Assembly: GCF_053078305.1 (NCBI RefSeq)
Contig: NZ_CP166879.1
DNA length: 64,000 nucleotides
Direction: 5' to 3' (one strand)
The translations under genes were made by a program, and so were the position numbers. Numbering within the stretch: position 1 is the first letter of the stretch; each line of letters opens with the position of its first letter. The notes under the pieces are model-generated. The model was not told the origin of the DNA and searched no databases. It was given only the letters and a program-made list of their open reading frames with translations. Of the stretch, positions 38,775 through 44,396 are shown in pieces.

Positions 38775-40109
38775 ATGCCACGTTATCAGGATATCGCCCG
38801 TCAGTTAAAAACGGCTATTGAGCAAGGGGAACTGAAACCTGGCGCAAGGCTACCTTCGAGTCGTACCTGGTCGCAGGAGTTGGGCGTCTCTCGATCCACT
38901 GTCGAAAATGCGTATGCTGAGCTGGTGGCGCAGGGATGGCTGGTCAGGCGGGGACAGGCGGGTACCTTTGTCAGTGAGCAGATACATCCGCAACAGTCTG
39001 CTGTGGATGTCGTGGCTTTTGCTGGTGAAAGTCAGCAGCCGCTGCCTTTTCAGATGGGGCTACCTGCACTTGATCTTTTTCCGCGTGAATTGTGGGCGCG
39101 GGTGATGGGCCGCCGTCTGCGTACCCAGACGCGTTTTGATTTGGCATTAGGCGATGTCTGCGGCGAGGCGGCCTTGCGCGAGGCTATTGTTGATTATTTA
39201 CGCGTTTCACGTGGGATTGATTGTCAGCCAGAGCAGGTCTTTATCACTCACGGTTATGCGGCCTCAATGGCTTTAATTCTGCACGCTCTGGCGCAACCGG
39301 GAGACGGGATGTGGATGGAAGATCCCGGCTTTCCGCTGATTCGCCCGATTGTCACTCGCCACGGTGTGGAAATTTTACCTGTGCCGGTTGATGACAACGG
39401 ACTGGATGTCACAAGCGGAATACAAAATTATCCTGATGCGCGTTTTGCCCTGATTACTCCGGCACACCAAAGCCCGCTGGGTGTGGCACTCTCTTTAGCG
39501 CGTAGGTATCAGATACTGGAATGGGCAGAGCGTAGTCAGGCATGGATTATTGAAGATGATTACGACAGTGAGTTTCGCTATCACGGTAAGCCGTTACCGG
39601 CACTAAAAAGTCTCGACGCGCCGCAGCGGGTGATTTATGCCGGAACATTCAGCAAAGCGCTATTTCCTGCATTGCGCTGTGCGTGGCTGGTGGTGCCGGT
39701 GGAGCAGATTTCGCAATTCCGGCAGCAGGCGTCACTGGAACCATGTGCTGTACCCGTACTGTGGCAGAACACACTGGCAGATTTCATCCGTGAGGGGCAT
39801 TTCTGGCGGCATCTGAAGAAAATGCGCCAGCATTATGCCCAGCGACGGCAGTGGATTGAGCAGGCACTTACGCAGCAGGGATTTCAGGTTGTGCCGCAAA
39901 AAGGCGGTATCCAGATGGTGATCAAACTAGCAGGTAATGACGTGACATTCGTGCATAAAGCCAATGCTGCTGGTCTTGCCGTACAGGCACTTAGCGACTG
40001 GCGTATCCGCTCAAGCGAGGACGGAGGATTATTGCTCTCGTTTACGAATATCGTTAGCGAAAGTATGGCGCGACAGGTAGCACAGCAATTGCGCAGTGCT
40101 TTAAATTAA
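38775..40109 (+). CDS. MocR/GabR-type transcriptional regulator (GntR wHTH fused to a PLP-dependent aminotransferase-like domain)
   Basis: 444-aa ORF; N-terminal GntR HTH (RLPSSRTWSQELGVSRSTVENAYAELVAQGWLVRRGQAGTFV) and C-terminal fold-type-I region with GTFSK PLP-lysine motif. Confidence 0.8.
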   Translation: MPRYQDIARQLKTAIEQGELKPGARLPSSRTWSQELGVSRSTVENAYAELVAQGWLVRRGQAGTFVSEQIHPQQSAVDVVAFAGESQQPLPFQMGLPALDLFPRELWARVMGRRLRTQTRFDLALGDVCGEAALREAIVDYLRVSRGIDCQPEQVFITHGYAASMALILHALAQPGDGMWMEDPGFPLIRPIVTRHGVEILPVPVDDNGLDVTSGIQNYPDARFALITPAHQSPLGVALSLARRYQILEWAERSQAWIIEDDYDSEFRYHGKPLPALKSLDAPQRVIYAGTFSKALFPALRCAWLVVPVEQISQFRQQASLEPCAVPVLWQNTLADFIREGHFWRHLKKMRQHYAQRRQWIEQALTQQGFQVVPQKGGIQMVIKLAGNDVTFVHKANAAGLAVQALSDWRIRSSEDGGLLLSFTNIVSESMARQVAQQLRSALN

Positions 40110-40258
40110 TAACCCCGAAGCCAGGCTTCGGGGTCCTATAAGACTGGTGACCAGGGCAAAATCCCCTGATGCGCTATGTTTTTCAGGCCTGTAGGCGGAC
40201 AAGGCGTTGACGCACTGAGTACTTTTCAGAAGTCAGACTACTGCTTGTCATCGTCTCA

Positions 40259-40588
40259 CTACGATTTACGCATGCTCAACAACGCACCGATAAAAATACC
40301 CACCGCTGCCGCTGTACCCACACTACACCAGGGTCTTTCACGAACAAAAGAATCCGCGCAGCCTACGGCATCGCGCGCGGCTTGCTGGACGCGAGTACGA
40401 CCATGCATTCGCGCCCTGGTTTCTTTCAGCAATGCCTGAGCTTTACTGCGTGCGGCTTCAGCTTCCCCTTTGGCGTCGCTGCCCCAGGACTTCAATACAG
40501 ATTCGAGGCTGTCAGCTAATTGATTGACATCATTCTGGATATCCTGCACGCCATCATCAACGTCGTTGCGGTTCGGTCGGTTAAACAT
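40259..40588 (-). CDS. ygaM: DUF883/ElaB-family ribosome-associated membrane-anchored protein YgaM
   Basis: ORF 40259..40600; from MFNRPNRNDVDDGVQDIQNDV.. with C-terminal TMS; start placed at the second Met. Confidence 0.85.
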   Translation of the reverse strand: MFNRPNRNDVDDGVQDIQNDVNQLADSLESVLKSWGSDAKGEAEAARSKAQALLKETRARMHGRTRVQQAARDAVGCADSFVRERPWCSVGTAAAVGIFIGALLSMRKS

Positions 40589-40739
40589 ATGATCCCCCAT
40601 TAGAATTCGATGTAATTTTCAGTGTAGACCATAATTTTCTTAACTGAGGTTCATCGCGGCTTTATGGACTTTTCTGAAAGCGTTGTGAATGCGCAATCAG
40701 GTAAGGTAGGCCCGCGGTTGATAATAACGAGGATCAAAT

Positions 40740-41084
40740 ATGTATTTACGACCAGACGAGGTGGCGCGCGTACTTGAAAAAGTCGGTTTTACTGTCGATG
40801 TGGTAACCCAGAAAGCGTATGGTTACCGCCGTGGGGAAAATTATGTCTATGTTAATCGCGAAGCGCGAATGGGACGTACCGCACTGGTAATTCATCCAAC
40901 ATTAAAAGAACGTAGTTCGACACTGGCTGAACCCGCTTCCGATATTAAAACTTGCGATCATTATCAACAATTTCCGCTCTATTTAGCAGGCGAGCGACAC
41001 GAGCATTACGGTATCCCGCATGGCTTTAGTTCGCGTGTTGCGCTTGAACGTTATTTGAATGGTTTATTTGGCGAAGCCAGTTAA
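40740..41084 (+). CDS. ygaC: DUF2002-family protein YgaC
   Basis: 114-aa ORF; divergent from ygaM. Confidence 0.85.
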
Positions 41085-41120
41085 AGACGCGACTGGCGAT
41101 GCCAGTCGCGAAAAGAAGAG

Positions 41121-41570
41121 TCAGGCTTTTACCTGCTGGTAATGGCTGACTTTAAACAGTCGGCGGCAATAATCGAGGAAGTAGCCATAAACCGCCCCCA
41201 TCAACATCGAAACAACGATGTTTGAACTGACTGCCGCCATAATCTGATGCCAGTCTGCGCCCACCACTAACAAGATCGCCACATACACCGGTGACTGGAA
41301 CGTCACATAAGCCAGGATATCCGCCAGATTTTTTATCCAGCCCGACGGGCTAACTTTGCGTGCCGCGCGCATAAACAGATCGCGGTACATACCGTATGGC
41401 CATGCAATTAAGATGTTCACCGGAATCGCTACCAATCTGGAATAAAAAGACTGTTCGAAGCTCATTCCGGAGAGGAAAACTTCAATACACATGTTCACGA
41501 CAGAACAGTAAACAACCATCGCGAACGTATCTGCAACTGCATGACGCAAGCGTGACTGCGGTGAGAACAT
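41121..41570 (-). CDS. alaE: L-alanine exporter AlaE (YgaW)
   Basis: 149-aa hydrophobic ORF; position between ygaC and stpA. Confidence 0.88.
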
Positions 41571-42237
41571 GCTAATGCTCCTTAATAAAAGCGTAATGGG
41601 ATGTTAATGGAGATGAAAGCAGTGGATCTCATTGCCATCTGCATTTTCGCATAGCGTATATCGCTGACTATGACTAATCAATTAGTGAAAAATTTTTATT
41701 TAGTCAGTTTTTGTAGATAAAATATTCCGTAACGGCTCGTTTTTTGTACATTGTGGATTTTTACATGCCGATATGATTTATTTTCAATTAAATCAATTAG
41801 ATATGACCTTTCCTTTAATTTCACTAATGAAAGTTTGGGGGTGAGGTAACGCTATAAGCGTAGAGAATTCGGTGTATGTCGTGACCGGGTCATTTACAGC
41901 ATTTTTTATGCCAGAAAATGTACATTAACAGCAGAAAGCACCAGTGAGTGGTGTTTTCTTTTATTCTGTTATATTGCATTTTTATTCACTTCGGTTTTGT
42001 CAGGCTTGCGGAATTAGCGAGCAGAGAGCGCCACTCTGTTCACCAATAACCTAAATTACTCATCAAAATGGCTAATATATAATCTTGAAATTATTCTGAG
42101 AGTTTCAGAAAATAACAGCTGAAATAATCTCGCGCAGGACTGTAAATAGATTAAATTTTGTGGAAATATAATAAGTGATCGCTTACACTACGCGACGAAA
42201 TACTTTTTTGTTTTGGCGTTAAAAGGTTTTCTTTATT

Positions 42238-42642
42238 ATGTCCGTAATGTTACAAAGTTTAAATAACATTCGCACCCTCCGTGCGATGGCTCGCGAATTC
42301 TCCATTGACGTTCTTGAAGAAATGCTCGAAAAATTCAGGGTTGTCACTAAAGAAAGACGTGAAGAAGAAGAACAGCAGCAGCGTGAACTGGCAGAGCGCC
42401 AGGAAAAAATTAGCACCTGGCTGGAGCTGATGAAAGCTGACGGAATTAACCCGGAAGAGTTATTGGGTAATAGCTCTGCTGCTGCACCACGCGCTGGTAA
42501 AAAACGCCAGCCGCGTCTGGCGAAATATAAATTCACCGATGTTAACGGTGAAACTAAAACCTGGACCGGTCAGGGCCGTACACCGAAGCCAATTGCTCAG
42601 GCGCTGGCAGAAGGTAAATCTCTCGACGATTTCCTGATCTAA
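42238..42642 (+). CDS. stpA: H-NS paralogue StpA (nucleoid-associated protein, RNA chaperone)
   Basis: 134-aa [50 protein letters not shown]; H-NS-type DNA-binding motif. Confidence 0.95.
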
Positions 42643-42688
42643 TTACTGAGGCCGGATGTCGCTGCCAGGGCGCGTCCGGCGTCGCTTC

Positions 42689-43213
42689 TCAAGCTCGTTG
42701 GTTCCACGGCATCTTATCTAAAAACCTTGCCATTCCACAAAAACCGCTGATTCCTGCAAACAGTAACCCGGCACCAACAAAGCCACTTAATAAGAAGAAA
42801 CCGCTATTTACGGTATAACCCAGTATAACGCCGATTAATATTAAACCACCCGCAGCGATCTGCACCTGGCGCATTAACGGCAAGGGTTGAGATTTATTTA
42901 CCGCTACTGGCAATCCTGCTTTTTTCCAGCCATCAATCCCATCTTCGAGTAAAAAGATTTCTGCGGGGGCGGCAATCGCTGCTAATTTATCGGCGTTATT
43001 ACTGGTGCGTTTACCTGCCTGGCAGTGGAATATAATTTGCTCGCGACGTAATTTAGCCGGGAGACCTGACTGTTCCAGCACGGATAATGGAGCCAGATCT
43101 GCTTCAGGAATATGTTCACGAAGATATTCATCAGCGTCACGAATATCGATTAACTTTGCGCCGCGTGCGATTAATTCTTGTGCATCATGCGGCGAAATGG
43201 TTGTCAAAGCCAT
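42689..43213 (-). CDS. ygaP: Rhodanese-domain inner membrane thiosulfate sulfurtransferase YgaP
   Basis: 174-aa ORF; rhodanese active-site Cys (FHCQAGKR) and C-terminal TMS. Confidence 0.9.
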
Positions 43214-43222
43214 AGTGACTCC

Positions 43223-43522
43223 TTACGGACAATAGACATTTTTCAGGCTGGCGATAATGGCATTTACCGCCTCATTTTTAATGGAATATAGAATGCGTTG
43301 GGCATCCCGTTGGCTGTTGATAAGCCCTTCGTCCCGCATACGAGCGAGATGCTGTGATGTCGCAGAGGCGCTCAGTCCGGTAATGCGCGTCAGCTCTCCC
43401 GCGCTGGTGCCGGGGGAACCGCTAAGCATGCACAGAATCAGCAACCGTTTAGGGTGGCTCATTGCTTTCAATAAGGCCGCTGCCTGTTCGGCACTGGCCT
43501 GTAATTGCGCGAGTTCAGTCAT
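43223..43522 (-). CDS. ygaV: ArsR/SmtB-family transcriptional regulator YgaV
   Basis: 99-aa ORF with ArsR-type HTH; operon with ygaP. Confidence 0.9.
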   Translation of the reverse strand: MTELAQLQASAEQAAALLKAMSHPKRLLILCMLSGSPGTSAGELTRITGLSASATSQHLARMRDEGLINSQRDAQRILYSIKNEAVNAIIASLKNVYCP

Positions 43523-43704
43523 ATTTATTTAAGTATTTTCTAAATTAAGTAAACTCTAAACTAAAAATGCAACATATACCAGCCTCAGCAGCGTAAATGA
43601 GAGTAAAAGCGTAAGCTGAAACTGGCAGGCTCCGCTAAAATTACTACGCTTAAGAGATAAAATCTCTTTTTAAACAATGAGTAATTTTCTTATAGGGAGT
43701 ACAT

Positions 43705-43863
43705 ATGGGTTTCTGGAGAATCGTCATCACCATCATTCTGCCGCCGCTCGGCGTGCTGCTCGGTAAAGGGTTCGGTTGGGCGTTCATTATTAATATTCTG
43801 TTGACACTGCTTGGGTATATCCCCGGTTTGATTCACGCGTTCTGGGTGCAAACCCGCGATTAA
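43705..43863 (+). CDS. yqaE: Small membrane protein YqaE (Pmp3/UPF0057 family), 52 aa
   Basis: Not in the ORF track (below its size cutoff); hand translation of atgggtttctgg..cgcgattaa gives MGFWRIVITIILPPLGVLLGKGFGWAFIINILLTLLGYIPGLIHAFWVQTRD. Confidence 0.85.
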   Translation: MGFWRIVITIILPPLGVLLGKGFGWAFIINILLTLLGYIPGLIHAFWVQTRD

Positions 43864-43946
43864 ACCTGTGCTCATCCCCGCGGCGTTAACGCGCCGCGTT
43901 CCTCTGCTACACTTTCTGAGTGTTTCCGTTAACGAATGAGGTAGCT

Positions 43947-44396
43947 ATGGGTCTGTTCAATTTTGTGAAAGATGCCGGAGAAAAACTCTGGGACGCGGTT
44001 ACAGGTCAGCACGATAAAGACGATCAGGCGAAGAAGGTGCAGGAGCATCTGAACAAAACCGGTATACCGGATGCCGATAAAGTGAACATTCAAATTGCCG
44101 ACGGCAAAGCGACGGTCACTGGTGACGGCCTGAGTCAGGAGGCGAAGGAGAAAATCCTTGTTGCGGTGGGGAATATTTCCGGTATTGCCAGTGTCGATGA
44201 TCAGGTGAAAACGGCGACACCAGCCACTGCCAGCCAGTTTTATACCGTTAAGTCTGGCGACACTCTGAGTGCCATTTCCAAACAGGTCTACGGTAACGCT
44301 AATCTGTACAATAAAATCTTCGAAGCGAATAAACCGATGCTAAAAAGCCCGGATAAAATTTATCCGGGGCAAGTGTTGCGTATTCCGGAAGAGTAG
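43947..44396 (+). CDS. kbp: Potassium-binding protein Kbp (YgaU; BON plus LysM domains)
   Basis: ORF 43920..44396; from [18 protein letters not shown].. with C-terminal LysM ([14 protein letters not shown]); start placed at the internal Met. Confidence 0.9.

Follow-up and report, generated by a model that had tools for sequence, protein, structure and literature searches.

A two-way control region between alaE and stpA

The 667-bp stretch at positions 41571-42237 of the window (the whole 64,000-nucleotide stretch of contig NZ_CP166879.1, assembly GCF_053078305.1, that was analysed) is very probably, at roughly 85%, a shared two-way control region of alaE, the gene for the L-alanine exporter, and stpA, the gene for an H-NS paralogue, and itself encodes neither an RNA nor a protein. 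A two-way control region at this locus is already known in Escherichia coli K-12. The evidence on protein binding and regulation used here comes from the K-12 and Salmonella literature; the anatomy, the conservation and the composition of the region were computed in this study.

Reading from the left, 41570 is the last position of the start codon of alaE (41121-41570, minus strand), and the ATG of stpA (42238-42642, plus strand) lies at 42238, so that 41571-42237, which is assigned to neither strand, is exactly the intergenic region between the two genes. In a genome with an identical copy, these are annotated as the L-alanine exporter (minus strand) and the H-NS paralogue (plus strand). They face apart, and each has a conserved promoter-like element near its 5' end, as in a divergent promoter region. 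The first-pass annotation had described about 660 bp of AT-rich sequence without credible ORFs before stpA, which agrees with the exact gap of 667 bp, its 34.3% G+C and its longest ORF of 42 codons. It overlooked alaE, however, and the gap is the promoter region of alaE as much as that of stpA. The gap ranks fourth in length among the 44 stretches of the window without an ATG-started ORF of at least 100 codons (median 141 bp), and of the three that exceed it at least one, 43214-43946, is not truly devoid of coding sequence, with the small genes ygaV and yqaE inside it.

The window is part of an E. coli chromosome. Among the 5426 complete E. coli genomes searched, 5419 have the region, always once and on the chromosome, and it is therefore core DNA that was not horizontally acquired. 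Moreover, stpA lies beside alaE in 58 other species of the Enterobacteriaceae, with a gap of 475-789 bp and 31-43% G+C, which makes the AT-rich gap an old trait. In K-12, the stpA-alaE (formerly stpA-ygaW) spacer (NC_000913.3, 2798496-2799163) is the same locus with the same flanking genes; it is 668 bp long as against 667 bp in the window, and the RefSeq record annotates no feature in it. The two sequences are 99% identical in the end modules described below and 95.6% identical in the centre, where the window carries the rarer allele: only 90 of the 5419 genomes are at least 99% identical to it over the whole region. In the neighbourhood, a gene for a MocR/GntR-type PLP-dependent regulator and a gene of the carboxymuconolactone decarboxylase family lie to the left of ygaM (38775-40109 and leftwards). 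In K-12, nrdH directly follows ygaM, which points to a strain-variable insertion beside the locus in the window.

Composition of the region

The G+C content of the gap is 34.3%, compared with 50.7% in the whole window, and only 2.8% of the 667-bp segments of the window are as AT-rich. Tracts of at least four A or four T occur at 3.3 per 100 bp, about three times the window mean of 1.05 and the maximum among 667-bp segments sampled every 50 bp; 28% of the bases sit in A/T runs of six or more, and the TpA frequency is at the 96th percentile. In AT-richness, A-tracts and TpA steps alike, the gap has the composition of H-NS/StpA-type DNA. The A-tracts gave no 10-11 bp signal of helical phasing. 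Elsewhere in the window, at about 52600-57200, there are stretches that are still more AT-rich (28-35% G+C), including 1385 bp without a long ORF at 54337-55721.

Published regulation and the proposed model

By genomic SELEX in K-12, sites for RNA polymerase holoenzyme in both directions and an H-NS site were located in the stpA-alaE spacer (PMC3946193). The stpA gene is silenced by H-NS, sustained by Lrp in minimal medium and stimulated by temperature and osmolarity (PMC4668568), and its expression is 4.5-fold higher in a Salmonella hns mutant (PMC7544231). In K-12, Lrp gives a double ChIP peak, with one site in the spacer and the other inside ygaP; when the ygaP site is deleted, the activation of stpA by Lrp falls more than 5-fold, and purified Lrp bridges the stpA-alaE/ygaP DNA as seen by atomic force microscopy, a bridging that leucine abolishes (PMC10127797). 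The K-12 alaE promoter also responds to Lrp, with slight repression in minimal medium and activation when leucine is present (PMC10127797). Together with the A-tract and TpA composition, the H-NS site (PMC3946193), the repression of stpA (PMC4668568, PMC7544231) and the Lrp occupancy (PMC10127797) bear out the earlier suggestion of an H-NS/StpA-type region. The published results on H-NS, RNA polymerase and Lrp explain the gap with no need for an extra gene.

From these reports a model can be proposed, in which RNA polymerase would start in both directions from the gap, and H-NS and StpA itself would cover the AT-rich DNA and hold down stpA. Bound to the spacer, Lrp would bridge to the other site, inside ygaP at a distance of about 1 kb, by which stpA would be activated in poor medium and alaE with leucine or alanine. 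The model assigns no role to the strong plus-strand hairpin of this strain, which is described below.

Individual binding motifs are weak in the region. The Lrp consensus YAGHAWATTWTDCTR has three matches of 12/15 in the gap (at 41652, 41701 and 42084), and over the whole window its 101 matches are not above chance (85 +/- 11). The best match in the gap to the H-NS high-affinity motif TCGATAAATT is likewise weak (8/10, TAGATAAAAT, 41714-41723) and lies in a conserved block; in the whole window this motif occurs 88 times, marginally above the 68 matches of shuffled sequence. Such matches do not fix the position of the Lrp and H-NS sites.

With the H-NS-silenced and Lrp-countered promoters of E. 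coli the region shares an AT-rich and A-tract-rich upstream DNA, the opposition of a silencer and an activator acting at a distance (here by Lrp bridging), and a sequence turnover faster than that of unbound intergenic regions (PMC4720273). Unlike in the general class, the silenced gene is here itself an H-NS paralogue, so that the gap is part of an H-NS/StpA feedback loop.

The two conserved end modules

When the 60 sequences of the family (those of the window, of K-12 and of the 58 other species) are aligned and the Escherichia species are compared among themselves, the region falls into three parts, with a conserved module at either end and variable sequence in between. The alaE-proximal module (41571-41810, 240 bp, minus strand) contains blocks of 70-97% identity over the 60 sequences and comprises the alaE leader, the core promoter and upstream A/T-rich blocks that probably serve as protein-binding sites. 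Among the runs in it that do not vary between the six Escherichia lineages are 41649-41661, 41677-41701 and 41709-41721, and an A/T block lies at 41688-41701. The alaE ribosome-binding site GGAGCA is at 41576-41581 (minus strand), and its GGAG is invariant in all 24 aligned species. Further upstream, the family alignment points to a predicted alaE core promoter at 41653-41681 (minus strand) with a -35-like TTGATT (41681-41676) and a -10-like TATACG (41660-41655). The -10-like element reads TATAAT in several other genera, and it overlaps a conserved palindrome, AGCGTATATCGCT (41653-41665). In addition, a direct repeat, AATCAATTAG, occurs at 41676-41685 and again 115 bp away at 41791-41800, in both cases in a conserved block. 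This pair, which has no strand, is the sole repeat in the gap that coincides with conserved blocks, and the two copies are candidate sites for a regulator. In Citrobacter amalonaticus S646, where the gap is 778 bp long, a G+C-rich insert directly upstream of alaE (about 2371-2470 of its locus) displaces the conserved alaE promoter block; it carries GGCCCCTGAGGGGC-like repeats and looks like the insertion of a small repeat element.

The stpA-proximal module (42151-42237, 87 bp, plus strand) is 92-98% identical across Escherichia. Its -10 element TATAAT (42167-42172, plus strand) lies within TGGAAATATAAT (42161-42172), a block conserved at 50-90% per position in the family alignment, and the TGGAAAT part of the block is invariant in 12 of 12 aligned sequences of Escherichia, Salmonella and Citrobacter. 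From the position of this -10 element we infer a start site near 42178, which gives a leader of about 60 nt; the ribosome-binding site of stpA lies within GGCGTTAAAAGGTTTT (42215-42230). Outside the module, a second perfect TATAAT (42078-42083, plus strand), which has no good -35 element, stands inside the block GGCTAATATATAATCT (42070-42085). The block is invariant in ten E. coli alleles and mostly retained in the other Escherichia species, and its TATAAT is possibly a weak second stpA promoter, or merely AT-rich binding DNA.

Three observations concern the stpA gene itself. Codon 94 (42517-42519), in the conserved RQPR-P-AKYKF stretch at the start of the DNA-binding domain, encodes Leu in the window and Pro in K-12; since the exact 60-mer is found in none of 5417 complete E. 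coli genomes, Leu94 is either a missense change private to this strain or an error of sequencing. A hairpin followed by a T-run is predicted on the minus strand at 42522-42505. Besides the main end after the gene, K-12 Term-seq has a 3' end at 2798243 (about 42490 in the window), inside the stpA coding sequence and 252 nt past the start codon (PMC7815308).

A fast-evolving centre of constant length

Between the two modules lies a central spacer (41811-42150, 340 bp, no strand). When E. coli is compared with E. albertii, E. whittamii and related lineages, its identity is 54-58%, well above that of shuffled controls (about 33%), and the centre is therefore homologous across Escherichia. The neighbouring divergent intergenic regions are 87-96% identical in the same comparison, and even the four-fold degenerate codon sites of seven surrounding genes, at 66-72%, are above the centre. 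The ratio of corrected distances between centre and silent sites is 0.7 for clade I and 1.4-2.0 for the more distant species, which means that the sequence of the centre is essentially unconstrained or evolves somewhat faster than silent sites. Its length, in contrast, hardly changes: all Escherichia lineages fall within 338-342 bp, and no more than 1-4 single-base gaps are needed to align any two of them.

A few short islands survive in the centre and are probably protein sites. The island GTAGAGAAT (41860-41868, no strand) is invariant in six Escherichia lineages and partly retained in Citrobacter. The near-palindrome CAGCATTTTTTATGCCAG (CAGCAT-N5-ATGCC, 41897-41914, no strand) is kept in Escherichia, Salmonella and Citrobacter, with a perfect form (CAGCAT-N5-ATGCTG) in the last genus, and is a candidate site for a regulator. 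The island AAATAAC/GAAATAAT (42110-42128) also survives across the Escherichia lineages.

Apart from these islands, the central spacer appears to need only length and AT-richness and not a particular sequence. A stronger statement, which we regard as doubtful, is that the centre is selected solely for length and AT-richness, that it thereby dictates how the H-NS/StpA filament and the Lrp bridge are arranged in space between the alaE and stpA promoter modules, and that its sequence drifts. Selection of this kind would explain how 42-46% substitution can go together with just 1-4 single-base gaps across Escherichia. In a still bolder version, the perfect hairpin of the rare allele may also be functional, as an insulator before the stpA promoter or as a strain-specific transcript end.

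It is a general pattern that H-NS-bound upstream regions evolve faster than unbound intergenic regions (PMC4720273), in a data set that left out gaps longer than 300 bp and thus does not contain the alaE-stpA gap. H-NS binding alone fails to explain the fast centre, as can be seen from the nearby ygaV-yqaE gap (43523-43704), which is also divergent, has 31% G+C and is marked as H-NS-bound (PMC3946193). This gap is short (182 bp), and it is 91-93% conserved across Escherichia as against 54-58% for the alaE-stpA centre.

An alternative origin of the divergence is regulatory switching, in which the regulatory DNA of the centre was replaced by recombination with a distant lineage and did not evolve fast in place; this would be compatible with the two-way control region. 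There are three deep sequence types of the centre within Escherichia, mutually 53-63% identical, conservation sets in abruptly at about 42150, and the divergence scales unevenly with that of silent sites, with 0.7 for clade I versus 1.4-2.0 for the distant species. However, every Escherichia type is 38-48% identical to Salmonella and Citrobacter and none is closer than the others, and in plasmid and phage collections the centre matched only mislabelled chromosomes and one 92-bp fragment. Furthermore, the length and the short islands have stayed in register, which suggests descent in place, and fast evolution is the rule for H-NS-bound upstream regions (PMC4720273). Nothing in the compared sequences indicates a donor lineage, and replacement seems unlikely to us. 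As to the matches themselves, the terminal 92 bp (1635-1726) of the 1.7-kb phage record OR845717.1 ('Escherichia phage ECO95 1-6-1') are identical to 41811-41902 of the window and are probably host DNA within the record, and in PLSDB three multi-megabase E. coli chromosomes are entered as plasmids.

A remnant of a mobile or repeated element (REP, ERIC, IS or MITE) was considered and rejected: the region is single-copy in each genome and contains only scattered inverted repeats of 10-14 nt. The centre has no terminal repeats, and besides the AATCAATTAG pair a search of the gap for tandem and dispersed repeats gave one trivial near-repeat of 11 bp. The 8-mer GGGGTGAG near 41838 resembles by eye the core of the ERIC repeat; it stands in this same single-copy DNA.

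Tests for a hidden RNA or protein

The first-pass annotation had also supposed that the region may hide a small RNA or a small protein, and neither part of this idea held up. For a small RNA, the candidate would be an unannotated plus-strand transcript in the centre that ends at a terminator-like hairpin (41933-41970, plus strand), with an 11-pair stem at 41933-41959 followed by a T-rich tail. Hairpin and tail fit an intrinsic terminator, in this strain only, and resemble the GC-containing hairpin and T-run with which small-RNA genes end in long intergenic regions of enterobacteria. The allele of the window folds far better than shuffled sequence (-14.7 versus -7.0 kcal/mol, z = -3.6), and its 5' arm does not vary within E. 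coli. The 3' arm, on the other hand, is a polymorphic hot spot: the stem, perfect in the window, is bulged in K-12, the other E. coli alleles range from -12.6 to -4.5 kcal/mol, and the weakest are no better than shuffles. Compensating changes are seen in none of the 11 pairs, six of which are disrupted in some alleles. Of 5392 genomes, 9 share the 60-mer of this strain exactly, and 21% depart from it at 6-12 of the 60 positions. E. albertii, E. whittamii and related lineages lack the hairpin, which does not occur outside E. coli and clade I and is thus a lineage-specific and decaying structure.

A sigma-70 scan of the plus strand upstream of the hairpin (41571-41930) gave no match, and the best promoter found there by eye, TTTACA-N15-GAAAAT, would make an RNA of only about 40 nt. 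With Rfam at a permissive threshold, the sole match in 40000-44000 was rli43, whose 16.9 bits (E = 0.67) fall far short of the gathering score of 100 and amount to noise, and a search for tRNA genes with ARAGORN found nothing in the region. The published K-12 Term-seq tables (PMC7815308), to which the Term-seq check proposed in the first pass was confined, list no RNA 3' end between 2798243 and 2800533, where the K-12 allele forms the bulged, weaker hairpin, so that the window allele is not strictly tested by them. In the literature we found no small RNA between stpA and alaE/ygaW, and the published SMRT-Cappable-seq tables do not name stpA or alaE. Unlike known small-RNA genes, the hairpin therefore comes with no promoter, conservation, covariation, Rfam family or K-12 3' end. 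As the end of a small RNA it was rejected on conservation, covariation, the missing promoter and K-12 Term-seq, and we consider such an RNA very unlikely.

Still less probable is a cis-regulatory RNA, such as a riboswitch, an attenuator or a thermosensor, in either leader. The gap contains the leaders of both genes, and both genes respond to conditions, stpA to temperature and osmolarity (PMC4668568) and alaE to alanine and leucine (PMC10127797), but the consensus folds largely refute the idea. For the stpA leader of 21 species, no pair was predicted; for the alaE leader there are two invariant 5-pair helices (10 pairs) around the start codon, which have no compensating changes, and the rest of the leader is poorly conserved. 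Moreover, Rfam gave no match to either leader, and the response of alaE is accounted for by Lrp at its promoter (PMC10127797).

A small protein of at most 50 residues is almost certainly not encoded in the gap. Its ORFs come in about 30 variants of 10-42 codons on the two strands that share 20 stop codons, and not one of them has both an ATG and a ribosome-binding site at a good distance from it. Among the ten E. coli alleles that were compared, several stay open throughout, but at 96-99% DNA identity this is expected by chance. Six ORFs (the longest and those intact in all E. coli alleles) were followed through the 60 family sequences, and each is intact in only 2-4 of them; stop codons interrupt them in most sister Escherichia species, and none has an excess of change at third positions. 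The small-ORF check raised in the first pass thus ended with no small ORF kept across sister species.

Meaning of the two-way control region

As a discovery, the alaE-stpA gap carries little weight, since it is a studied regulatory region that the tests run here have cleared of hidden genes. What appears from the comparisons to go slightly beyond published work is the centre, free in sequence and stable in length, and the perfect form of the hairpin, a rare allele carried by this strain, and both points are minor. The gap is a clean example of promoter architecture, with two conserved modules and, between them, DNA that keeps its length and composition and not its sequence, and it lies upstream of a gene whose own product, a nucleoid protein, binds DNA of this kind. 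If the length constraint is true, the region would offer a simple natural test case for the dependence of H-NS filaments and Lrp bridges on spacing over sequence.
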